Source: a virus. Taken from it: a DNA stretch of 64,000 nt. Below are positions 2,317 to 64,000 of the stretch, in pieces. The notes beneath the pieces are model-generated. The model saw only the letters and a program-made list of their open reading frames with translations. It ran no database searches and was not told the origin of the DNA. A program made the position numbers and the translations under genes. The stretch is taken from the IMG/VR virus record IMGVR_UViG_3300045988_180980. One strand, 5' to 3'. The stretch's first letter is position 1; the number at the start of each line of letters is the position of its first letter.

Positions 2317-2631
2317 ATGAACATCCGACCTACCCAATCTTACACTGAACTGCGCCGCTACACCGAGAAATGGCAGTGGGACGACCCCCGCACGGGGCGC
2401 AGGACAACAGGCTACGTGCATCCACAGACAGCGCGGAACGTGCAGCGCATGCCGTTCTACATCAAGTTCCTCACCAAGAGCGGACATGTGGATGAGGGCA
2501 ACTGCGTTTGCCTGTCTGTTGATACCCTGCGCCACCAGCGGCGGGTACAGTTCGTGGAGAGCGGTGAGATAAGGGTGGTCAACGATGTCCTGGTGCTCGA
2601 AGTAGATGGCACCAGATTCATTACGCATTAA
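2317..2631 (+). CDS. hypothetical protein
   Basis: 104-aa ATG ORF, co-oriented with its neighbours. No motif recognised. Confidence 0.45.
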   Translation: MNIRPTQSYTELRRYTEKWQWDDPRTGRRTTGYVHPQTARNVQRMPFYIKFLTKSGHVDEGNCVCLSVDTLRHQRRVQFVESGEIRVVNDVLVLEVDGTRFITH

Positions 2632-2798
2632 GTTAATTATTACGTTGATTGTGGCCGTCTGACGGTCCGCGAGGATAGCGGCGGTGTTAGTTTTTCATAC
2701 AAAAGATACTTCATTTTTTTTAGGTTTTTAGAGGCTCCCACGGTCTGTGAAGATATAGGGAGTATTTGTTGAACATTAAACTATAAAACATATACATT

Positions 2799-3383
2799 AT
2801 GATTACAAGAACAATCAAGAGAATTTGGAATTTTATTCTCAGCGGTTTCAGTGGTCGTCGCCTGCAGAAAAGAATGCTGCAGGGATTTGCCGCGCTTGAC
2901 AGAATAGAGCGAAAAGGCCTTCTGACGTGGATTCGCGAGGGCAGATACCTCCTGCTCGAGCAACCATTTACCACTTCGATTCTCGCTACGGGAAAGAAGG
3001 GAGCCAAGAACATCTTCACGATGGTGGCTCTCTGGCAGAATTTCCACATCTTCCTGGAAGCTGCCGAGCAGATACGGCTCGAGACTGAACTTGCAGCCGT
3101 GCGCAAGGCAAAGAAGGAGCATCCCTCGTTGACCAATGAGGACATACGCCGCATACGCATGAATGCCCGCAACAACATGCCCGAACTGGACCCTGACAAG
3201 ATAGATTATGTCCGCGAGTTCGACCTGTTTGTCATCCGCTCGTCGGCACCCTCGGCACAGGATGCCACCGAGGAGAACGGGCAGCTGGTGGCACTCGGCC
3301 ATTTCGATGGCAAGGAACTGCAGATGGCCATGTATGAGGATGTGAAGTACAACCTGATGCGCGGTGAAGATGAAAATAATTAG
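2799..3383 (+). CDS. hypothetical protein
   Basis: 194-aa ATG ORF that follows an AT-rich intergenic stretch. No motif recognised. Confidence 0.5.
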   Translation: MITRTIKRIWNFILSGFSGRRLQKRMLQGFAALDRIERKGLLTWIREGRYLLLEQPFTTSILATGKKGAKNIFTMVALWQNFHIFLEAAEQIRLETELAAVRKAKKEHPSLTNEDIRRIRMNARNNMPELDPDKIDYVREFDLFVIRSSAPSAQDATEENGQLVALGHFDGKELQMAMYEDVKYNLMRGEDENN

Positions 3384-3855: not shown

Positions 3856-4308
3856 ATGGAAAAAGAACCTATCACACAGATGGAGTTTGACCGCCGTATG
3901 GTGGCGCTCCGCGAACAGTATGCAGAAAAGCTGGCTTTAGTGAGGAATATCAGAGAGGGCATTCAGCGTGACAAGTATAGCATTCAACAGCAGATACACG
4001 AGTTGAAGGCGCAGTATATGAAGACCTGCTGTGACCTCCACGAGGCAATCCAGGTGGAGGCGAAGACAAGGAGGGAGGAAGCCGACTGCCGACGCGCACT
4101 CCTCGAAGCCTTCTACCACCAGCACAAGCCGCAGATGTACCAGCCGTTTGACAATCGTATGGCATATCATGTACGACAGTCGGTGCTGAATGCCCTGCGT
4201 GAGGCGCTGGACGGCAAGTGCGACACAACGAAAATTCAGTTCAATTACACCTTCGGCCCCAACGGCGAGGTGGAGTTCAAAACCGTTATTCCTGAGATAG
4301 AGATATGA
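3856..4308 (+). CDS. hypothetical coiled-coil protein
   Basis: In-frame ATG at 3856 (MEKEPITQMEF...). The sequence is heptad-like and rich in charged residues. Confidence 0.5.
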   Translation: MEKEPITQMEFDRRMVALREQYAEKLALVRNIREGIQRDKYSIQQQIHELKAQYMKTCCDLHEAIQVEAKTRREEADCRRALLEAFYHQHKPQMYQPFDNRMAYHVRQSVLNALREALDGKCDTTKIQFNYTFGPNGEVEFKTVIPEIEI

Positions 4309-47510: not shown

Positions 47511-50500
47511 ATGGCAAAGAAATTTACAGACATCAACGACCTTCTGCGCAAGAAGGACAATGAGGAGGCACGCGAGGAAATAGAGTCCTCGGGTGTGCCG
47601 CAGAACGAGTGCCTGTCTGCCGACGAATTTGTGAAGCAGATAGTCACCCCCATCCAGGAGCTGCAGGCTGATGCCAAGAAGAGTGTCAAGTCCGTCAAGT
47701 TCAATAACATCACCTACGAGCCTGATGCAGACGGTGTGGTGTCGTTCAATCAGATGGTGGAGAGCGACAGTTATGCCATACGACTGGCATCCGACCTCAA
47801 GGGCGACCGTAACATCAAAGAGGGTGACACGCTGACAGCCAACGTGCGCTACATGGCACTGAAGATCACCCAACTGGGCGACCGCGTAAATTATCGTGAC
47901 GTGCCAGGCACACTGCGCATCGACATCAAGAAGGAGGGGACCGACACGTGGCAGAACCGCTACGTCCAGACCAACATCGTGTCACAGGACGAGAATTACG
48001 ATGCAGGGAGTGCGGCTTCCTACCCCGTGAGCGTAGAGATAGGCAAGTATCTGACAGAGGGCCGACAGGACGTGCGCATCAGAGTGACTTCCTACTATGA
48101 GGACGAGAACGGTGTGAAGCGTGAGTTCTTCGGCGACCTCATCTACTCCATCAATGCCGTAAACCTCACCGTGAAGAACCTCACCGACTGGTCGAAGCGC
48201 ATCCTGGCCTCTGACGGTGGATTCCCCTTCTCATTCTCCGTAATGGGAGCCGTTGACAAGAAGCTGCATGTCACCATGACGGGTGCCACGGGCACATGGA
48301 CGATGGAACCGAAGACATTCCTGGCCGACGAGCAGCGACCCGAAGCCAATCCCTACTCGTGGACACAGCAGGAGATTTCGGCTTACGGACTGTTGTCGCA
48401 CGGCGTGCATACCGTCACGGCATGGGTGACGTGCGATGACGGCATGGGCGGCGAATTGTCTTCGGAAGTGCAGGTCAACCGCTTCATGGTGGTAAATGCA
48501 GCCACCGCCTCTCCTGCACAACTGGTACAGCCCTACCTGATGCTCCAGGGCGTGCAGAGTGTGGTGGAGAACTATGTGCGCACGGTCATCTCCAACTTTG
48601 CCGTGTGGGTGCCGAAGAGTGCCGATGCCCCCACTCTGCCTGCCACCGACCCGCTGCCCGTGAGCATCCGTATCACGAATGCCGGTGACGGCGACCTGGA
48701 CTACACGGCTTCCTACTATGTGTCTGAGCAGAAAGTCGTGGTGGGCGAGCGCTACCCGATTGACACCACCATCGAGATTGAGAACTCATCCTCTGGCGAG
48801 AGCCCTGCCTCTTACCAGGCATACTTGCGCATATTTCGATACAACGGCGACGAGGTGGTGAACTTCCTGCGTGAGAGCCAGGGCAACCGCTTTGTGGTGT
48901 TCACCGTGGATAACAAGAACGACTATTCGCCCGTGGCAGGTGCCCACTTCTATCTTGACCCCAAGGTGCGCAACAACACCGAGACGCACTTCCAGACCAT
49001 CGTCAACAAGCAGACGCAGGAGGAAGTGCCTTCTGTGTGGAACGGCTTTTCGGGTACGGGCGATGCCTGGGTGCAGGATGACGATGGCGTGAAGGTGCTC
49101 CGTATTCCGAGCGGACGAACGATTGTCATCGGTTACGAACCGTTTGAAGCTTTCAAAACGAACCCGTCGGCGGCAATGTCGCTTGAGATGGAGTTTGCCG
49201 TGCGCAACATTACCGCCGAAGACGATCCTGTAATCAGTGTGTCGCAAACCATTGAGAGTACGCTGGAGAAACTGGGCATCATCATCAAGCCGCTCACGGG
49301 TGCGGTATGGGCGCAGGAAAAGCAGAACGAGGATGACCAGGACTTCGGCTTCGAGGAAGACAAGCGCGTGCATCTTGTGGTGACGCTCACTCCGGCTCTC
49401 GTGGCCAAGGGCAGCGACGAGTTCAAATGGCAGACACCCAACAAGACTCCTTCCAACCGACCCACCGTGAAGGTGTATGTCAACGGCAAGCCGCAGCGTG
49501 CCGTACAGTATAGTGTCGATACCAACGGCGTGTGGATTCAGGGCGAAGGACACGGCGGCATCCGTCTGGGACACCCGTCGTGCGACCTCGACATCTACAC
49601 CATCCGCTGCTATCGTGGCGTTACGCTGTCGGCACAGAACGTGCTTCAGAACTTCACAGCCACACGCCCCGATGCCGAAACAAAGAACGCCATCCGCCAG
49701 CGCAACGATATACTGGATGGCAATGGGCGCGTCTCTTATCGCAAGGTGAAGGCGAAAAACAAGCGATGCCTGACCCTTGTGGGCACGGACAACTACAAGA
49801 TGAACCAGGACAAGAAGGTGGGCTATGCCTGCTATTGGAACATCGACTACTACGACAACACCGGCAACTACGTGCCTGAACTGTCGGGCACCATAGGCAA
49901 GGCTGCTTATCTGGCTTATGTGGCTGGCACACTCGGCGGCAAGAAGTGTCTGATGAATACTGCTCAGGGAAGCACAGCCAACACGTATTGGTGGAACAAC
50001 GAGCAGACGAAGTGCGATAAAGTCACGTACCGCATCCGCGTCCCCTTCCTTACACTTCATCCCGAATTTGGATGGAAGCCCGAGAAGTCGGACTTCACCG
50101 AGACGGCAGTTGCCTCGTTCCCTCTCTATCTCAACGGCGAGCAGATACAGGGTGCCGACGTGGCTACGCTCTCTGAGACACAGAAGGAGAAGCTGGAGAT
50201 TGAGGTGGTAGATGGATGGATTGACGGCAACGGCATGTATCACGGACAGTTCTACACGCCTGTCGTCGGTGGTCCGAAAGCCACGAAACTCGTCAACAAG
50301 ATCAACTATGCCTCGCCGATGCAGTCGCACAAGATGGGTGCCACGCGCCTCTACAACGACGTGATGAAGGCCGTGTGCAAGGATGAACTGCCCGACTGGT
50401 TTGCGGCGAACCCCGAGGCACGTTTTGCCGTGTACGAGGACTGTTATTACTTCTTCAATCAGCCCGAAGGCGAGAAGGAGCCGGTGTTTGTCGGCTTCGG

Positions 50501-53500
50501 CACATTCGGCTCGGGCAAGTGCGACAAGGCTACGTGGGGATATGACAAGAGCAAGATGTTTGCCTTCGAGGGCCTGAACAACAACCTTCCGCTGTGCGAC
50601 TTCCGCGTACCTGCCGACGAGGATGTGACGTATAGCGTGGATGATGAGTCGTGGGTGTATAACGGCATCAAGTCGTTTGAGTACTCGTTGGGCAAGACGA
50701 ATGCTGACGAAACACCTGTGGCAAAGAACGATGCCCTGTTCCGCCGCTACTGCAACTTCATATATGCCCATGACGTGCGTATGCAGTACTTCCGTGGCGA
50801 CCGTGCCGCGTTTGACGCGCATTATGCCAACGTATATGACCGTGCCACGGCTGTGGGTGCCACGGATGCCGACACGCAATTGCTGGACGAGATGCAGACC
50901 ACGAAATACTGGCTGCGCGACGGTGACGAAGCGTTCCACCTGCTGCGCTTCAACTATGCAACAGGCAAGTTTGTAGATGCGGGCATCTGGACGGATGCCG
51001 ACGGATATAAGCCGGGTGTGCGCAACCTCTCCACGGATGTCATCACGAAAGCCACCTACGAGGAGTGGAAGCAGAGCGAGGATGTGGGCGACTATGCCAA
51101 GCTGAACACCCGTTTCCAAATGGCCATCGCATCGTCGTTCAACGAGCACTGCCGCAAGTATCTCAACAAGAAAAACCACCAGGTACACTACACCCTGGTG
51201 AACTACCTCTATGCCGGTACTGACAACTGCTCTAAGAACACCTATTACACTATAGACATCACCACATCCCAGTGCTGGCTCTATCAGGACGATCTCGACA
51301 CCATATTCAAAACCGACAACAACGGACGACAGACGAAGGTGTATTTCCTCTCGCGCTATTTCGACGTGCAGGACACCGAGGCAGGCCTGAAGAAGCAGAA
51401 GGACTATGAGGGCACGGCTTCGGCATTGTTCAATGTCATGGAGGCGGCATGGGAGACGCTCGACCCAACCGCACTGCCTGCCAATATGCGTGAGGTGCTC
51501 ACGGCGATGTGTACGCTCGTGGGGGCCAACGAGGAGCTTGACGGCCTGACCACCACACAGCGCCAGACACCTTACGGCTGTCTGCATAAGTACTTCTTCG
51601 CTACGCAGAAGTATTTTGCAGAAGTGGCGTGGGCGGAACAGCAGCGCATCCGATACGACTGGCCCGCATCGTGGGGCTACGAGAGTTACGGCAACCAGGC
51701 ACGTGGTGTGCTGGCCGTGACGCAGGGCATAGGCGACCAGCTCGAGAGTGAGGTGCAATACATGACCCGCCGCCTGGCTCTCGTATGTTCGTATGCGGCA
51801 TGGGGCGACTTCTCCAGTGGCGTAAATACAGGCTCGACAGGTCTGGTGGATGCCAGCGCTGGTTTGCAGTTCACGCCTGGCTCGGGGCGCACAGGAGGTG
51901 AATATACGTTCGACCTCGTACCGCATCAGTTCCTCTACCCCTGCGGTGTGCGCGACCGTGCGCTCATCAACCCTCATATCCGCATGATACCGGGGCGGAA
52001 CTACACATTTACCGTCAACCCGGCATCTACGCCTATCCCAGGCGACTCGTCAGTAGGATTGGCCGCTACCAACTACTACCGCTCCATCGGCAACGTGGGC
52101 AATATGGTGGTGGGCAACAACAACTTCACCATCCAAGGTCGCCGCCTGACGGAGTTCATTGCCGAGCCGAAGGCGGGTAGCAGTGCCTTTGCCCCGAAGC
52201 AGATAGATGTGGATGCAGCCAACCTGCAGAGGTTGTCGCTCAATGGCGTAAGCACCTCCAGCGGCACATTCAACCTCTCCAAGGCTTCGCGTCTGCAGAC
52301 ACTCGACCTGCGCGGCACGCGGTACGGACAGGTGCGTATGCCGTCTTCGCCCCAACTCACCGAGGCGCGTTTTGGTGCCGAACTGTCGCAACTGGAGGTG
52401 CGCGACATGCAGCAGTTGCAAACGCTCACGCTGGACGGATATTCCCGCCTGACTTCGCTCACCGTGCTCAACTGCGGGTTTGACACCCTCGCCCTGGTGC
52501 GCGGATGCAGCGAGGCGGCTGCCAAACTGAGCACGTTGCGCATCAACGGAATTGAATGGACGGATGTTGCCCCTGCCATACTATCGTATATGGTGGGCAT
52601 CTCCTACTGCGAGATAGCGGGGCGCATAGCAGTCACGAGCGGACAGAACGTGGATGCCGAACTGAAGCTGGCACTGCTGCGCAAGTTCGGCAACATCGAC
52701 TCTGCCGACAACACCATATATATCATTTATTCGCTCCGTAACGTGACAGGGCTGCAGATCACCACACAGCGTTTTGTCATTGCCGAGGCGGGCGACTATC
52801 CCTACCAGTGCAGCGTGCTGCCGTCGATGGCAAACAACTTCTCCGACATCAGGTGGGAGGTGTCGGCCAACGACTTCAATGTGACTGTGGATGCCGAGAC
52901 GGGTGTGCTGCATGCGCCTATGGTGGGCGAGGAGAGCAACAATCCCACGGCCACGCTCACGGTGACGGCATATCTGACAGGCGGTGGCACAGTGTCGGCC
53001 AGCGTGGTGCTGAAGCTGTTCAACCGCATCCCCAAGCTGGGGGACTTTGCTTACTACAACGGTGAGTTCGACTCGGTGCTTTACCCGGGCAAGACGGTCA
53101 TCGGGTGGGTGTATAAGGTCACGCCGTATGCCGACCTTCCCTCCGACCTGCTCAACGAGTACCTGCAGGACGAGGAGACGGCTGCGCAATACAATGCTGG
53201 CAAGACACTGTACGAAGTGCTCGTTGAGGGTACTGATGATGTGACGCTGCGCACCACCAACGGCGCCAGTTCGTTCAACGTGATGGCATGGGGCATCTAT
53301 CCCGAGGATGCCGGCACGCAGGGCTTCACGCCCGAAGAGCGGGCACCCATTGCCGAGGCGCTGCAGACGACCGATGACAACCTGCTGGACATACCTGACG
53401 TGCGCAACTGTACATCAAGCGGACTGACCGATACCGAAGGTCAACCTACCCGTTACATCCGTGATAACAACGCCTATGACGACAGCACAGCCGACGGCTT

Positions 53501-54212
53501 CCCCAAGTTCGACGGTAATGTTGCTCCTAACAGGTGGGACGGCAGGAGGTGTACGCGGGCCATCGTGGAGCATGCCAACAAGGTGCTGGAGAAGTACGTG
53601 GCCGACGGTGTGATGACCGACAGCGAGGGGCACAACATCTTCGACTACCTGCCTGCCGGACGCGGACATATCATCCCTGAGAACAACGAGGAACTGGCCG
53701 ACCTGCTGGTGGCGCTGGGCAATCTGGGCGGCGGCGACCGCTGGATGCAGTTGGCCTATCCCGCTGCACGTGCCTGTGTGCTGTACGAACCCACCTCGGG
53801 CGGTAAGGCCATCGCGGGCCTTGCATCGGCGTTTGCCAAGGGCAGGTGGTATCTGCACGCTCCTGGCGATGAGTTCCGTCTGTACGTCTTCTTCCGCAAC
53901 AGCCGCGCCCTCTCGCCTGCCGACACAGGTACGCCCACCTCGGAGTTCTCCGACGAAGACAACCCTCTGCGCCCCACCGAGCCCACCGATGCCCGCCGCC
54001 CCTTCTATGCCAATCTGCAAAAAAGGTCCAAGGAGGCAAAATTAAACTGCCCGATAAGCGTACCCGCGCAGCCCGATCGCTGGTCATCCGTTGAGCAAGT
54101 ACGCCTTGCCTCCTGGTATGTCAGTTTCGGCAACGGCAACATCGGCCTCGCCGGCGGCAAGTCTTACAGGTTCCGGGTGCGCCCTGTCGTCGCTTTTAAC
54201 TTCGCCCTTTAG
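47511..54212 (+). CDS. giant tail fibre / receptor-binding protein; DGR target with C-terminal variable region
   Basis: 2233 aa. There are LRR-like repeats at about 52221..52560 and a Big_2-like Ig segment at about 52750..53020. The C-terminus is DUF1566/C-type-lectin-like (WYLHAPGDEFRLYVF ... RWSSVE...RFRVRPVVAF). Its last ~130 nt are repeated as the TR. Confidence 0.85.
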   Translation: MAKKFTDINDLLRKKDNEEAREEIESSGVPQNECLSADEFVKQIVTPIQELQADAKKSVKSVKFNNITYEPDADGVVSFNQMVESDSYAIRLASDLKGDRNIKEGDTLTANVRYMALKITQLGDRVNYRDVPGTLRIDIKKEGTDTWQNRYVQTNIVSQDENYDAGSAASYPVSVEIGKYLTEGRQDVRIRVTSYYEDENGVKREFFGDLIYSINAVNLTVKNLTDWSKRILASDGGFPFSFSVMGAVDKKLHVTMTGATGTWTMEPKTFLADEQRPEANPYSWTQQEISAYGLLSHGVHTVTAWVTCDDGMGGELSSEVQVNRFMVVNAATASPAQLVQPYLMLQGVQSVVENYVRTVISNFAVWVPKSADAPTLPATDPLPVSIRITNAGDGDLDYTASYYVSEQKVVVGERYPIDTTIEIENSSSGESPASYQAYLRIFRYNGDEVVNFLRESQGNRFVVFTVDNKNDYSPVAGAHFYLDPKVRNNTETHFQTIVNKQTQEEVPSVWNGFSGTGDAWVQDDDGVKVLRIPSGRTIVIGYEPFEAFKTNPSAAMSLEMEFAVRNITAEDDPVISVSQTIESTLEKLGIIIKPLTGAVWAQEKQNEDDQDFGFEEDKRVHLVVTLTPALVAKGSDEFKWQTPNKTPSNRPTVKVYVNGKPQRAVQYSVDTNGVWIQGEGHGGIRLGHPSCDLDIYTIRCYRGVTLSAQNVLQNFTATRPDAETKNAIRQRNDILDGNGRVSYRKVKAKNKRCLTLVGTDNYKMNQDKKVGYACYWNIDYYDNTGNYVPELSGTIGKAAYLAYVAGTLGGKKCLMNTAQGSTANTYWWNNEQTKCDKVTYRIRVPFLTLHPEFGWKPEKSDFTETAVASFPLYLNGEQIQGADVATLSETQKEKLEIEVVDGWIDGNGMYHGQFYTPVVGGPKATKLVNKINYASPMQSHKMGATRLYNDVMKAVCKDELPDWFAANPEARFAVYEDCYYFFNQPEGEKEPVFVGFGTFGSGKCDKATWGYDKSKMFAFEGLNNNLPLCDFRVPADEDVTYSVDDESWVYNGIKSFEYSLGKTNADETPVAKNDALFRRYCNFIYAHDVRMQYFRGDRAAFDAHYANVYDRATAVGATDADTQLLDEMQTTKYWLRDGDEAFHLLRFNYATGKFVDAGIWTDADGYKPGVRNLSTDVITKATYEEWKQSEDVGDYAKLNTRFQMAIASSFNEHCRKYLNKKNHQVHYTLVNYLYAGTDNCSKNTYYTIDITTSQCWLYQDDLDTIFKTDNNGRQTKVYFLSRYFDVQDTEAGLKKQKDYEGTASALFNVMEAAWETLDPTALPANMREVLTAMCTLVGANEELDGLTTTQRQTPYGCLHKYFFATQKYFAEVAWAEQQRIRYDWPASWGYESYGNQARGVLAVTQGIGDQLESEVQYMTRRLALVCSYAAWGDFSSGVNTGSTGLVDASAGLQFTPGSGRTGGEYTFDLVPHQFLYPCGVRDRALINPHIRMIPGRNYTFTVNPASTPIPGDSSVGLAATNYYRSIGNVGNMVVGNNNFTIQGRRLTEFIAEPKAGSSAFAPKQIDVDAANLQRLSLNGVSTSSGTFNLSKASRLQTLDLRGTRYGQVRMPSSPQLTEARFGAELSQLEVRDMQQLQTLTLDGYSRLTSLTVLNCGFDTLALVRGCSEAAAKLSTLRINGIEWTDVAPAILSYMVGISYCEIAGRIAVTSGQNVDAELKLALLRKFGNIDSADNTIYIIYSLRNVTGLQITTQRFVIAEAGDYPYQCSVLPSMANNFSDIRWEVSANDFNVTVDAETGVLHAPMVGEESNNPTATLTVTAYLTGGGTVSASVVLKLFNRIPKLGDFAYYNGEFDSVLYPGKTVIGWVYKVTPYADLPSDLLNEYLQDEETAAQYNAGKTLYEVLVEGTDDVTLRTTNGASSFNVMAWGIYPEDAGTQGFTPEERAPIAEALQTTDDNLLDIPDVRNCTSSGLTDTEGQPTRYIRDNNAYDDSTADGFPKFDGNVAPNRWDGRRCTRAIVEHANKVLEKYVADGVMTDSEGHNIFDYLPAGRGHIIPENNEELADLLVALGNLGGGDRWMQLAYPAARACVLYEPTSGGKAIAGLASAFAKGRWYLHAPGDEFRLYVFFRNSRALSPADTGTPTSEFSDEDNPLRPTEPTDARRPFYANLQKRSKEAKLNCPISVPAQPDRWSSVEQVRLASWYVSFGNGNIGLAGGKSYRFRVRPVVAFNFAL
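54065..54195 (+). repeat. DGR variable repeat (VR)
   Basis: 131 nt homologous to 55002..55129. The flanks are identical (20 nt ATCGCTGGTCATCCGTTGAG and 29 nt CAGGTTCCGGGTGCGCCCTGTCGTCGCTT). In the diverged centre most TR adenines are replaced. Confidence 0.8.
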
Positions 54213-54223
54213 CCTTAAACACT

Positions 54224-54246
54224 CGGTGCGCCTTAATAGCGCACCG
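54224..54246 (+). promoter_or_regulatory. hairpin downstream of VR (candidate DGR target-recognition element)
   Basis: CGGTGCGC-cttaata-GCGCACCG, an 8-bp perfect stem beginning 29 nt after the end of VR homology. Confidence 0.5.
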
Positions 54247-54284
54247 CATGCGCGAGAGGACAAGTTGCACAAGATTAGGTAATT

Positions 54285-54320
54285 ACACTCTCCGCGCAAT
54301 AGCGTGGAGAGTGTTTTCTC
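54285..54320 (+). terminator. intrinsic terminator after the DGR target gene
   Basis: ACACTCTCC...GGAGAGTGT stem followed by TTTTC. Confidence 0.6.
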
Positions 54321-54363
54321 AAAACTTTCTTTCCCAACGCTTGCATGTGTTAGAAAAAAGTCG

Positions 54364-54371
54364 TACTTTTG
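54364..54371 (+). promoter_or_regulatory. Bacteroidota-type -7 box TACTTTTG (avd-TR-RT promoter)
   Basis: Matches TAnnTTTG, 31 nt upstream of the avd ATG. Confidence 0.4.
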
Positions 54372-54401
54372 CGTTGTTCTTAGACGTTAAGGACTAATAC
54401 C

Positions 54402-54860
54402 ATGGAGAACAAACAAGATATAAATAATACAGACAAAACAGAAACTGTTCACATAACGGAGGAGCAGAAAAGGAGAAGCGGCAAACTCAAGAAAGAGGTT
54501 GTCAAAACCATCCGACAGCAAGCCGTTTACCGTGATGCGCAGAACCTGTTTTTTGTCCTGGCACAGACACGCAAGACTTGCCCTGTCAACTTCCGTGCTG
54601 TGCTGGAGACCCTGTATCTGGGGTGCAATGCCGTACTGGTGGCGCTGTCGCTCGCCTATTCCGAGCCGGCGGCGAGGGTCGATCAACTGACCATCGCCAG
54701 TGCGCACCTCGATGCAGTGCGTACATCAATGGGTATTCTGCGCTCCATGGGCTGCATGAGCCGGGATGATTACAAGAAAGCCAAGTCGCTGGCAGAATCC
54801 TGCACCAAGCAGGTACTTGCCTGGCGGGCGTCTTCAAGGGGTCTGTGTCCCGCGATGTAG
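54402..54860 (+). CDS. avd: Avd-like accessory variability determinant (four-helix-bundle protein)
   Basis: 152 aa, basic and helical (…AQNLFFVLAQTRK…LYLGCNAVLVALSLAY…AHLDAVRTSMGILRSMG…). It sits between the target gene and the TR-RT, the canonical DGR position. Confidence 0.7.
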   Translation: MENKQDINNTDKTETVHITEEQKRRSGKLKKEVVKTIRQQAVYRDAQNLFFVLAQTRKTCPVNFRAVLETLYLGCNAVLVALSLAYSEPAARVDQLTIASAHLDAVRTSMGILRSMGCMSRDDYKKAKSLAESCTKQVLAWRASSRGLCPAM

Positions 54861-54885
54861 TAATGTTCAATCACGAGAGTGAATT

Positions 54886-56340
54886 ATGATTCGCGGAAGT
54901 GTATCACTGGAGATGTTAGAAGGGGGGCTTACCTATCATGGGCTTCGGTCATACGGACGGGAGACCCTGAATGGTTACGAAGATGCAAAGCCCCAATACG
55001 ACGCGCAGACCAATCGCTGGTCATCCGTTGAGAGCAACCGGTCCAACGCCTGGAATTGCAATTTCAACGACGGCAACCTCAACAACAACAACAAGTATAA
55101 CAGGTTCCGGGTGCGCCCTGTCGTCGCTTATGACACTCCTGCCGACTTCCTCAATCTCGTGTTTGCCGCTTTCCATGACTGCTGCCGCACCAAGCGTACC
55201 AGTGCAGAGTGCATAGCCTATTGTGAGCGGGCGCAGCAGGACCTGCCGCTGCTGGCTCACGAACTATATACAGGCACCTACCAGCCTGGCCCCAGCACGT
55301 GTTTCCTGGTCAAATATCCCAAGTACCGCGAGGTGTTTGCTGCCGGATTCCGCGATCGTATCGTACACCACTTCATCTATCTTCTGCTCAACCCCTGTTT
55401 CGAGGAGCGCTTTGTGGCGCAAGGCAATGTGTCGTTCAACTGCCGCAAGGGCTTCGGCACACTGGCAGCGCAGCAGGCGGCATTCGAGGCCATCCGTACC
55501 GCAACCGACAATTACCGCACGCCTGCCGTGGTATATCGGGGCGACCTGGTGTCCTTCTTCATGTCCATAGACAAGCGCATCCTGTGGAGCAGGCTGGAGC
55601 CGTTCATACACGAGGAGTACCACGGACCCTATCTCACCCAGCTGCTCACGGTGACACGCACCGTGGTGTTCCATTGTCCCGAGAAGAACTGCCTGTTCAG
55701 TACCGACCCAGCCGAATGGGCGCTGCACGTGCCTGTCCATAAGTCGCTCTTCACCAACGGCGACTCTTTCGGTATGCCTATCGGCAATCTCACTACACAG
55801 ATATTCGCCAACTTCCTCATGTCCTTCTTCGACGAGTTCGTCATCCGATGGATGAAGGGTCACGGACTGGACGTGCACTACGTCCGCTTTGTGGACGACT
55901 TCCTGTTCATCTGTCGCAACAAACACTTGCTCAAGTGCCTGATAGCCGACGCAGCGGTGTTCCTGCAGAGCGAACTTGGCCTGACGCTCCACTTCGACAA
56001 GCATCATTTCCAGCCCGCCGCACACGGAGTGCTCTTCGTGGGCGCTTATCTCAAGAACTGGCGCATGTATCTCTCTGGCCGCACCGTGGCACGCTTCATC
56101 GAGCGCATGCACGGATTCGACGGCATGCTGCTGAACAAGCAGTGCATCACGCTGGCCGACACGCAGAGGATGGAACAGGTGGTGAACTCCTACCTGGGAT
56201 TCCTGAACGGGAAGCGCACCTACAACATACGCCGGGCGGCACTCGCAGCCATGTGCCCACGCTTCTATGACCATGCCTACATACGCGGCCGCTACACCTC
56301 AATACGCTCACGCCGCAGGCTGAAAACGGCATCATTGTAA
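54886..56340 (+). CDS. DGR reverse transcriptase (the ORF includes the TR in frame)
   Basis: PKYREVFAAGFRDRIVHH, NCRKGFGTLAA, GMPIGNLTTQIFANF (the DGR-type IGxxxSQ block, 55780..55800), YVRFVDDFLFI (catalytic xVDD) and LFVGAYL are all present. There is no in-frame ATG between 54886 and the RT domain. Confidence 0.9.
   Translation: MIRGSVSLEMLEGGLTYHGLRSYGRETLNGYEDAKPQYDAQTNRWSSVESNRSNAWNCNFNDGNLNNNNKYNRFRVRPVVAYDTPADFLNLVFAAFHDCCRTKRTSAECIAYCERAQQDLPLLAHELYTGTYQPGPSTCFLVKYPKYREVFAAGFRDRIVHHFIYLLLNPCFEERFVAQGNVSFNCRKGFGTLAAQQAAFEAIRTATDNYRTPAVVYRGDLVSFFMSIDKRILWSRLEPFIHEEYHGPYLTQLLTVTRTVVFHCPEKNCLFSTDPAEWALHVPVHKSLFTNGDSFGMPIGNLTTQIFANFLMSFFDEFVIRWMKGHGLDVHYVRFVDDFLFICRNKHLLKCLIADAAVFLQSELGLTLHFDKHHFQPAAHGVLFVGAYLKNWRMYLSGRTVARFIERMHGFDGMLLNKQCITLADTQRMEQVVNSYLGFLNGKRTYNIRRAALAAMCPRFYDHAYIRGRYTSIRSRRRLKTASL
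55002..55129 (+). repeat. DGR template repeat (TR)
   Basis: AAC-rich (…AAC CTC AAC AAC AAC AAC AAG TAT AAC…) homologue of the VR, located between avd and the RT domain. Confidence 0.8.
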
Positions 56341-56367
56341 AACGACACAAATAAACACACACATACC

Positions 56368-61046: not shown

Positions 61047-61505
61047 CTATTCACCAGGCACAGTGAAGTCTATCCACTTCAAGTTGGGAAAGTACTGCTG
61101 ATAGTTGTCCTTGGTGATGTCCTGCTCCCAGTCGGTGCCGTCCATATACTCTATGCAGACGCTCACGGGCAAGGCATGCACCTTCTCCACTCCGAGGAAG
61201 GCATTTTTTGCCACGCGCTTATACTTCCTGTTCGTGTCGAAAGGTCCCGTTGATGACACCGTGCGCAACTGAAGGTTTGGTGTCATGCCTACAGACACGT
61301 CGCCCACCTCGTTTACGGCACACCACTCCACCTTGACATACTTCACCTTCTTCTCTCCGTCGCACGTAAAACTGGCGTACAGCTCCTTGGAGTAGTAGAG
61401 GAGGGTCGGCTTCAACTTGAAGGCTGAGAACACCACTTGTGCTTTTGCTGTACAGGCAACAAGCATCATTGCCAACAGCATCATCATTTTGATTGTTTTT
61501 TTCAT
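61047..61505 (-). CDS. putative lipoprotein / secreted protein
   Basis: Signal peptide MKKTIKMMMLLAMMLVACTAKAQ with a Cys at the end of the hydrophobic core. A minus-strand TAAATTTG box lies at 61553..61560. Confidence 0.55.
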   Translation of the reverse strand: MKKTIKMMMLLAMMLVACTAKAQVVFSAFKLKPTLLYYSKELYASFTCDGEKKVKYVKVEWCAVNEVGDVSVGMTPNLQLRTVSSTGPFDTNRKYKRVAKNAFLGVEKVHALPVSVCIEYMDGTDWEQDITKDNYQQYFPNLKWIDFTVPGE

Positions 61506-61511
61506 ACGTTT

Positions 61512-61551
61512 ATATTTTTATGCGTTCATACTTTCGTGGTTTTTTCTCTCC
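61512..61551 (-). repeat. duplicated 5' leader/promoter-proximal segment (copy A)
   Basis: ATATTTTTATGCGTTCATACTTTCGTGGTTTTTTCTCTCC is nearly identical to 62358..62400, upstream of the other lipoprotein gene. Confidence 0.75.
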
Positions 61552-61568: not shown

Positions 61569-62351
61569 CTATTCTACTTTATGAAACACCCAGACTGACT
61601 GCGCGTTACTTTCGTTGAAGAACACTATTTTGTCCTTCTCTCTTACATAGATATACGAGCGTGCGCCTGTTCCGGGTGTGAGGAATATGTCGAAGGCTGC
61701 GTGTCCGTTCTTGGTAGAGCAAGTAGTGGTGATGTCTATGCCTATTTTGGGAGCCGTAAACCTGACCTTACCATTTTTCCCTACCGTCATGGTAAATTGG
61801 GCGGCTGTTCCGCCCGTTGAGTATGCCGTTGTCCACCATGAGCCTACGAGAGCACCGTCGTGGTCGGAAGCGTCGGTATAGTCAGCGAAGGTGTTGCTTG
61901 TGCCGTAGCTTAGCATGTAGCTGCTCAACTGATGCGAATCGCCATTTGGAGCCGTAGCCTCGATTGTCTTTGAGTTAGACCGCAGTTCGGTAATGGTGAG
62001 CGACCCGTAAAGGATGTTGTTCCAGTCGAAGCCCTTGTATGCGCCCGTCGTAAATGTGGTGACGAGTTTGCCGTCCGCTACAGCCCACGTACCGAAGAAG
62101 TTTGACTCGGCCCATGTGAGCGTCCCCGACGTAATGTCGCCGATTCCGCTCATACAAGTTACCAGTCGGTTGCGGTAGAAGCGGAACTCGCTGCGCTTGT
62201 TGTCCAGATACCATTTATACCCCATGATGTAATTCCCCACACGCTTCTCACTGAATGTGCCGTCGGCATCGTCGCTGCTGCAACTGCCCATACTCACACA
62301 TGCTGCCATCACCATTGCCGACAGCAACATCATTCTGATTGCTTTTCTCAT
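61569..62351 (-). CDS. putative surface lipoprotein
   Basis: MRKAIRMMLLSAMVMAACVSMGSCSSDDADG has a lipobox-like Cys followed by an acidic SSDD stretch. Confidence 0.55.
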   Translation of the reverse strand: MRKAIRMMLLSAMVMAACVSMGSCSSDDADGTFSEKRVGNYIMGYKWYLDNKRSEFRFYRNRLVTCMSGIGDITSGTLTWAESNFFGTWAVADGKLVTTFTTGAYKGFDWNNILYGSLTITELRSNSKTIEATAPNGDSHQLSSYMLSYGTSNTFADYTDASDHDGALVGSWWTTAYSTGGTAAQFTMTVGKNGKVRFTAPKIGIDITTTCSTKNGHAAFDIFLTPGTGARSYIYVREKDKIVFFNESNAQSVWVFHKVE

Positions 62352-62357
62352 ACATCG

Positions 62358-62400
62358 ATATTTTTATACGTTCATACTTTCGTAGTTTTTTACTCTCTCC
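62358..62400 (-). repeat. duplicated 5' leader/promoter-proximal segment (copy B)
   Basis: ATATTTTTATACGTTCATACTTTCGTAGTTTTTTACTCTCTCC, compare 61512..61551. Confidence 0.75.
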
Positions 62401-63560: not shown

Positions 63561-63939
63561 GCGTATGTATTTAATATAGTCAAGAAAACCGCAATAAATA
63601 TTGTATATTATTGTTTTGTGGAGTTTTTGGCGCTTTTTGCTCTATGTTTGTTTGGTTTTTGTATTTTCATGTGAATAAAAAGCATTTTGATGCGTATCAA
63701 TGTTGTGTCTTTTGTTTACGAATTAAATTAAACCCCGATAAACAGTTAATAATAAACACTTTAACTATCCACACACCCTGCAAACACCGCCCCAAAAGGG
63801 ACTCTTAAATAATTGATATTTAGAGAAATCCTATACATAAAAACAACCCTGAAACTTCGATTCGCACGATAGAGCCCCGCCGCACTGAGGAGCCTTGTGT
63901 GTGCCCTGCCTGGGCTGGTGGATGTATATATGCCAACGA

Positions 63940-64000
63940 CACCACCAGCACCAGCAGGAGCACCACCAGCACCACCAGCAGGAGCACCACCAGCACCACC
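63940..64000 (+). repeat. 21/24-nt tandem repeat CACCACCAGCACC(ACC)AGCAGGAG, cut by the window edge
   Basis: Copies at 63940 (21 nt), 63961 (24 nt) and 63985 (truncated). The repeat is in frame with the ATG at 63930, giving MPTTPPAPAGAPPAPPAGAPPAPP... Confidence 0.7.

Follow-up and report, generated by a model that had tools for sequence, protein, structure and literature searches.

In the diversity-generating retroelement (DGR) of Bordetella phage BPP-1, arranged mtd-avd-TR-brt, a small helical protein is encoded beside a target gene that carries a variable repeat (VR) at its C-terminus. The VR differs specifically at the adenines of a template repeat (TR) associated with the reverse transcriptase (RT), and an invariant GC-rich 3′ segment is followed by a hairpin. 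The locus described here, a gut phage DGR cassette on the + strand of a 64,000-nt stretch of viral DNA (IMG/VR record IMGVR_UViG_3300045988_180980; hereafter, the window), resembles that of BPP-1 in these features, including gene order and a homologous RT. Unlike in BPP-1, its TR lies in frame inside the RT open reading frame (ORF), its VR has a DUF1566/Lcl_C-like motif in place of Mtd, its Avd-like protein has no detectable sequence similarity, and its target protein comprises 2233 aa. The nearest isolated phage, Bacteroides phage BS-TP1 (PQ571274), has the same gene order, with gp27 (2187 aa), a four-helix bundle protein and a 493-aa RT with an in-frame TR. Its VR has one additional codon at an (AAC)4 run and otherwise differs from its TR at adenines only. 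However, the RT of BS-TP1 is just 47% identical to that of the window, the two phages have no nucleotide-level similarity, and the BS-TP1 pair shows 0 non-adenine differences. Finally, the peptide pattern W..E...W..F..G....K....VRPV and a weak match to Lcl_C (PF07603) recall Legionella-type (CLec2/DUF1566) DGR proteins, although the window protein is of phage structural size and not a lipoprotein, and the Pfam match stays below the gathering score.

TR/VR pairs that depart from strict adenine substitution are on record. In the survey of Wu et al. 2018 (NAR 46:11, PMC5758913), substitutions at non-adenine TR positions occurred in 23% of DGRs, with a maximum of 11 in one target; TR and VR differed in length in ~7% of DGRs, with 74% of indels lying beside AAC; and one DGR had one canonical target and another that was not. 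Published surveys, this one included, do not require adenine-only differences or equal length for membership, so that the premise of the first-pass annotation of the window, namely that active pairs normally have equal lengths and differ only at adenines, was too strict. The pair in the window shares with those of Wu et al. the non-adenine substitutions and the in-frame indel opposite AAC, and is thus of a kind already catalogued. What is added here is population context: unlike in that survey, the non-canonical pair can be seen to be one heritable allele, occurring among canonical ones made from the same, strictly canonical template, and AAC length variation turns out to be frequent and insertion-biased in this clade.

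The repeats and their parts are as follows.
54065–54195, + strand: VR, 131 nt, 'QVRLASWYV...GNI' allele, delimited by repeat families D4, D5 and D8 and by alignments.
54096–54141, + strand: diverged block of 46 nt that contains every non-adenine VR/TR difference.
54144–54158, + strand: five NNC codons (GGC CTC GCC GGC GGC), one more than the four AAC codons of the TR that they face.
54168–54195, + strand: invariant 3′ segment, AGGTTCCGGGTGCGCCCTGTCGTCGCTT, resembling an initiation of mutagenic homing (IMH) site and common to VR and TR.
55002–55129, + strand: TR, 128 nt with 34 adenines, translated as ...RWSSVESNRSNAWNCNFNDGNLNNNNKYNRFRVRPVVA within the RT ORF.
55081–55092, + strand: (AAC)4 run of the TR, the site of VR length variation.

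Global alignment of the TR with the VR placed differences at 21 of the 34 TR adenines (A>G 11, A>C 6, A>T 4) as against 12 of the 94 other positions (Fisher P = 1e-7), together with a single 3-nt insertion in the VR. The first-pass annotation had arrived by hand at the same picture: 21 differences at adenines, about 12 elsewhere, and one extra codon (131 versus 128 nt). It had placed the non-adenine differences mainly in the 5′ third. Their clustering is real, but 'first half' describes it better, as they span nt 33–77 of the VR with nine of the 12 at nt 33–57 (window positions 54097, 54098, 54101, 54104–54107, 54111, 54120, 54121, 54132 and 54141). No simple re-alignment leaves adenine-site differences only: a lenient-gap alignment, rejected as over-fitted, needed about six small gaps and retained 3 non-adenine mismatches. 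Judged by its RT, repeat pair, adenine bias, directionality and gene order, the locus is a DGR; an Avd identity of the accessory protein and a lectin-like fold are more tentative. A DGR-type RT lies beside the repeats, the TR/VR differences favour adenines, and one-way transfer from TR to VR with ongoing diversification is seen for this cassette type in sibling phages. Measured against strict adenine-only substitution at equal length, the pair deviates by the 12 non-adenine differences and the 3 additional nucleotides.

The cassette type is active, directional and adenine-strict in its siblings. Some 20 contigs, 96–99.9% identical to the window, were collected via the 22-mer common to VR and TR and via exact look-ups of the Avd, RT and target proteins; look-ups of a 163-aa neighbour and of proteins P0001 and P0140 gained few further places. 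The phage is widespread: 484 blocks of the collection have an index entry for its Avd protein alone. Sixteen of the 20 unique VR/TR combinations among siblings have an identical TR. Fifteen siblings whose TR is that of the window or nearly so, and whose RTs are identical or near-identical to that of the window, carried canonical VRs, with 249 differences at adenine sites versus 8 elsewhere (97% at adenines) and 0–3 non-adenine changes per VR. Changes of the TR allele were mirrored in the VR (GGA in L172; CGA, AAT and GGT in L185), and canonical pairs with as few as 0–4 single-nucleotide polymorphisms (SNPs) in the 3.1-kb flank differed at 15–25 VR sites. Two siblings, L173 and L180, have canonical VRs and active cassettes even though only 3–4 flank positions separate them from the window. 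The activity and adenine specificity seen in these siblings therefore rule out a generally inactive element, a drifted TR and a sloppy RT.

The aberrant VR allele, comprising both the block and the five-codon run, was also found in L170/L189, L174, L183 and L187, which come from other samples, and accounts for 5 of the 20 unique sibling combinations. Besides that of the window, its sources are ERZ28579885/SAMEA4545348, ERR5192314, SRR31228110 and ERZ28574872/SAMEA5245500. The haplotype of the window and L170 is marked by private SNPs at 54253 and 54305, which are 58–110 nt from the VR. The five copies vary at 8 columns, 6 of them TR-adenine columns (two of these with three bases), and 8 of their 10 changes fall on adenine columns (P = 6.5e-4), the non-adenine positions having changed only twice. 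Pairwise, these VRs differ at 2–4 sites despite up to 41 flank SNPs in a 3.1-kb span, and the contig flanks are up to 3.7% apart overall. Near-constancy across diverged flanks, along with canonical VRs in the near-identical L173 and L180, indicates that the allele is old or recombinationally mobile, common, and nearly frozen. How sharply the divergence is confined to the repeat is seen against L003: the two VRs differ at 30 positions, whereas the preceding 300 nt contain 2 differences and the 2.1-kb cassette contains ~8. Within the clade (106 unique TR/VR pairs, RTs at least 39.5% identical), so many non-adenine differences are highly exceptional: 64 pairs have no non-adenine difference, 32 have one, 6 have two, 2 have four and 2 have five or more, the last being the window and L070; 96 of the 106 pairs thus have 0–1 and 102 have at most two.

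In one of the aberrant contigs, L187 (ERZ28574872), the gene carrying the VR (positions 2601–3248) is called at only 215 aa and is preceded by opposite-strand genes. Its upstream DNA aligns to the target gene of the window with a gap of ~300 nt at window positions 53207–53522, so that the target gene looks truncated or disrupted there.

What distinguishes the allele is the make-up of the block. It is in register with the TR, retaining TGG, TTC, GGC and AAC codons, and is ~60% identical to it at non-adenine positions. Its changes include one synonymous substitution (CGG>CGC) and three codons altered at all three bases, and several of its states are the normal TR states of relatives: CGC and FGNGNI in L011, L015 and L016, ATC (for CTC) in L011, L014–L016 and L188, and GTC (for TGC) in L027, L029 and L100, while AAC or AAT, corresponding to its GAC>AAC change, is found in the TRs of L185 and L188. 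On account of the register, the synonymous and three-base changes and the TR states of relatives, the block reads as a diverged homologue rather than as polymerase noise or drift, the latter also being excluded by the near-identity of the surrounding DNA in the window and L003.

The explanation we favour, to which we give about an even chance, is that of an ordinary DGR, active population-wide, beside which the window carries a VR allele not copied from the adjacent TR: its block would stem from a different TR/VR allele and would seldom or never have been rewritten since. We infer that the 46-nt segment was acquired from the TR or VR of a related phage, be it by retrohoming in trans, by template switching between TR RNAs (possibly at the shared AAC run) or by short-patch recombination. 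A later exchange of the cassette or of the flanks would have left the block beside the standard TR, and the allele would then have been inherited almost unchanged, rarely or never fully overwritten and accumulating only sparse changes, mainly at TR-adenine positions. A donor TR′, if one exists, would be an A-rich sequence with GAGNNANNACGCNNTNNCTCCTGGNNTGTCNNTTTCNNCNNCGGCNNCATC within an RT ORF, followed by ...GCTTATGAC.

Exchange of modules is common in these phages, as exemplified by a mosaic RT block in L174 and a cassette deletion in L186. In L174, the equivalent of window positions 55479–55951 shows 35 differences in 470 nt (7% divergence) within an otherwise near-identical cassette, which indicates recombination within the RT. 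L186 (ERZ4561748 Hadza NODE_389) is without Avd, TR and RT: window positions 54438–56346 are absent, the first 36 nt of avd still being aligned, and its VR, which ends in ...AFPFAL, has many non-adenine differences from the standard TR. The repeat in the RT ORF of L070 (IMGVR_UViG_3300006151_000005, positions 4068–4182) occupies the place of the TR, yet is VR-like and adenine-depleted (22% A versus 35% in its close relatives L073, L074 and L078) and its run has five codons; mutagenised cDNA would appear to have replaced the TR here, and the element would thereby be disabled.

Several observations weigh against the favoured explanation. The search for a donor TR′ or VR′ came back empty: the VR's own TR fits it at least as well as any of 112 clade TRs, nothing similar occurs elsewhere in the window or in 190 fetched loci, and a degenerate scaffold pattern had no match in the scanned viral_contigs and genome_contigs. 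The flanks of the block are identical to sibling sequence, so any exchange tracts must have been very short. All five aberrant contigs have an A-rich TR with the standard scaffold, four of the five have the IMH-like segment of canonical siblings (L187 has AGG>TTG), and in the contigs compared the hairpin shows no difference from canonical siblings. The sparse, single-site changes at adenine columns are, moreover, unlike the product of full homing. Further searches ended likewise. In the window, blastn-short, tblastn and an 18-mer scan allowing up to 3 mismatches recovered only the VR itself and the TR; a pattern of FGNGNI plus (AAC)4 retrieved nothing new from viral_contigs and genome_contigs; and a nucleotide search of GenBank phages gave no match. 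L188 (RT P0008) was considered as a donor, its TR peptide having SW and NNGNI like the VR, and was rejected because the DNA differs; the TR peptide of L014 has a similar partial resemblance.

Why has the allele not been rewritten? A cis defect common to the aberrant contigs was considered and rejected, as they have no shared SNP outside the VR in the 3.4 kb compared, and in Avd, TR and RT they either match active siblings or stay within the variation that these show. Hence, no cis defect explains the absence of rewriting. Three options present themselves: escape from full cDNA integration by virtue of scaffold mismatches, selection for a binding-site allele, or survivorship, in that full homing converts the aberrant allele into a canonical one. 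The sparse adenine-column changes suggest residual DGR action or selection on contact residues. Escape in its specific form, in which 5′ and central scaffold mismatches block complete cDNA integration by the phage's own DGR and let pass only patchy, single-site, adenine-directed changes, is a tentative proposal that we hold to be rather unlikely.

Among other accounts of the block, the one that survives best, although we regard it as unlikely, is that the cognate TR itself produced it by non-canonical mutagenesis: one aberrant round of homing, with non-adenine misincorporation, local slippage or frameshift pairs, or errors of cDNA integration, would have made both the block and the extra codon, and its product would have persisted. 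Precedent exists in the targets of Wu et al. 2018 (PMC5758913) with up to 11 non-adenine differences plus indels, in which those authors suggest an additional mutagenic capacity; siblings show sporadic non-adenine changes, for instance at a CGG codon; and the lenient-gap alignment would lower the number of mismatches to be explained. Yet that alignment is over-fitted, the 15 sibling VRs and the bulk of clade pairs have next to no such changes, and 12 errors crowded into 46 nt, leaving the remaining ~80 nt free of them, would be surprising, as would a synonymous change and the coincidence with TR states of relatives.

Changes at the CGG codon are an observation in their own right. The codon (54174–54176) lies at the 5′ edge of the IMH-like segment and shows recurrent non-adenine changes, to GGG, CTT or, in protein P0173, from Arg to Leu, at homologous positions in L008, L185 and P0173; it may be a junction-associated hot spot.

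Decay, in which homing into the VR stopped and the VR drifted away from an unchanged TR, perhaps under binding-site selection, strikes us as distinctly improbable. It would fit an allele that is near-constant across five assemblies with flanks up to 3.7% apart, and the DGR-less L186 illustrates how very divergent a VR may be in the absence of a cassette. However, 12 substitutions in 46 nt contrast with a 0.1% difference over 2.4 kb from L173 and L180, non-adenine positions changed only twice among the five copies while the remaining variation is enriched in adenine columns, and the cassette ORFs are intact, with only 3 positions, changed in the window and L170 alone, setting them apart from active ones. 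Of the explanations offered by the first-pass annotation, drift accordingly fails on both repeats: on the TR side because the TR is all but invariant among siblings, and on the VR side because the 12 clustered changes, including three-base and synonymous codon changes, far exceed a flank divergence of 0–3.7%. Its suggestion of an inactive element does not hold in general, near-identical cassettes being active in L173 and L180, and is right insofar as this particular allele has undergone no complete rewriting since the five assemblies last shared an ancestor.

Relaxed template specificity of the RT, or a true cognate VR elsewhere, is highly improbable. The window RT does have one private residue change (S235, nt 55588), but L174, L183 and L187 have the VR allele without it, and the RTs that yield 97% adenine-site changes in siblings are identical or near-identical to it. 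As for a target elsewhere, siblings with the same TR use this very locus canonically, in 15 cases, and the 22-mer has two copies only, both in the window and in sibling contigs of 86–93 kb, with no third that could mark an additional VR. The companion idea of an older target does better, the allele being indeed old and near-frozen. An assembly chimera in the hypervariable region is hardly credible. VRs do disrupt or mislead the assembly of metagenomes (PMC8008677), but block and extra codon alike recur in five assemblies from different samples and assemblers. In sum, the interpretation of the first-pass annotation was borne out in part.

An extra codon of this sort is on record. Indels at AAC repeats were put down to RT slippage by Wu et al. 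2018 (PMC5758913), and a 2026 study cites the same slippage model. Among the 106 unique pairs of the clade, the VR was longer by 3 nt in 17 and by 6 nt in 4, always within the (AAC)n run just 5′ of AAG. These 21 insertions compare with 2 in-frame deletions, both at an (AAC)2 run, making AAC-run indels about three times commoner than in the survey of Wu et al. (21/106 versus ~7%), and nearly all of them VR insertions. The inserted codons are NNC, as expected from an AAC unit copied twice. One additional codon arose independently in L008, L179 and L185, whose TRs have a standard or near-standard (AAC)4 run, and occurs in target proteins P0167 and P0173 as well. An (AAC)5 TR allele of 130 nt is present in L183 (~1630–1760) and L184 (~850–980), and RT P0149 (485 aa) goes with such a TR. 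In L183, the (AAC)5 TR adjoins the aberrant VR, TR and VR there being of equal length. The fifth codon of the window VR may therefore have come either from slippage of the RT by one unit on the AAC repeats or from templating by an (AAC)5 TR allele. TR length is, at any rate, polymorphic in the population.

The remaining parts of the cassette are the following.
47511–54212, + strand: target gene (2233 aa; C-terminal VR), taken from the ORF list.
54224–54246, + strand: GC-rich hairpin, 12 nt past the stop codon, with an 8-bp stem CGGTGCGC/GCGCACCG and the loop CTTAATA.
54402–54860, + strand: Avd-like accessory gene, 152 aa with four predicted helices, between target and RT.
54886–56340, + strand: RT ORF, 484 aa, with the TR in frame in its 5′ part.

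The target is probably a virion or tail protein. It matches phrog_24896 (function unknown), its place in the gene order parallels that of gp27 of BS-TP1, and its VR-carrying C-terminus had no Pfam match. VR and TR part immediately past the 28-nt GC-rich IMH-like segment, which is the same in the window, L170, L174, L183 and most canonical siblings, its 5′ end differing in L187 and a few canonical siblings. Folded as DNA, positions 54196–54262 gave -13.1 kcal/mol (z = -2.6). The hairpin within this region is a candidate target-recognition hairpin or terminator, a role suggested by its likeness to the hairpin that follows the VR in other DGRs. The 152-aa ORF had no sequence match in Pfam, NCBIfam, PHROG or PDB. 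Its counterpart in BS-TP1 is annotated as a four-helix bundle protein, and a low-confidence AlphaFold2 model (pLDDT 68) likewise comprised four helices, the top PDB fold match being Bordetella phage Avd (bAvd, 4DWL), albeit weakly (E = 0.11, prob 0.94).

The RT ORF contains RVT_1 at aa 146–386 (E = 2.8e-10, exceeding the gathering score) and matches phrog_1423, reverse transcriptase (E = 3e-61); its tblastn matches are RTs of DGR-carrying phages, Bordetella phage records among them. The motifs PIGNLTTQ and RFVDDF are encoded at window positions 55780–55805 and 55895–55910, and IGNLTTQ was picked as among the most conserved stretches in an alignment of 23 RT sequences. DGR RTs typically carry SQ in this motif where the window RT has TQ. 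Of 938 RT homologues at E <= 1e-40, all 36 whose sequences were read have the N-terminal TR-encoded peptide. On this peptide (RT ORF aa 41–79), the Lcl_C match is weak (E = 4.9e-4, 20.8 bits versus a cut-off of 34.9).

That the RT ORF encloses the TR, in frame, in its 5′ part is a trait of the clade (loci L001–L129). In 86 of 90 loci with unique TRs, the RT frame is open across the whole TR with an upstream in-frame ATG. Database RTs of the clade have 470–500 aa and start ~40 aa ahead of the TR-encoded peptide, and precomputed PF07603 matches occur in the N-termini of many of them. The Wu et al. 2018 survey, queried for a few exact phrases on a TR inside an RT ORF, contains none of them.

Elsewhere in the window, a 94-nt direct repeat, 83% identical, occurs at 61452–61545 and 62298–62391, 846 nt apart. 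The window ends in 9-nt periodic repeats of the CCAGCACCA type (63933–63998), possibly part of a collagen-like Gly-X-Y gene on the minus strand; downstream in L188 lies a gene for a 1263-aa protein with a weak collagen match.

In annotation, a non-canonical TR/VR pair should not be taken as a sign of a dead DGR or a sloppy RT before its relatives have been checked. The clade provides a large sample of length variation at AAC repeats, with its marked excess of insertions over deletions. The sibling set amounts to a natural experiment, in which one TR stands beside many rapidly rewritten VRs and one common resistant VR allele, and it bears on the VR–TR homology needed for cDNA integration as well as on the exchange of VRs between related elements. 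If the allele did escape its own DGR, it would be a stable, 'locked' allele for receptor binding in a phage population that is otherwise hyper-diversifying, and would offer a natural read-out of the homology requirement on the 5′ side of DGR homing.

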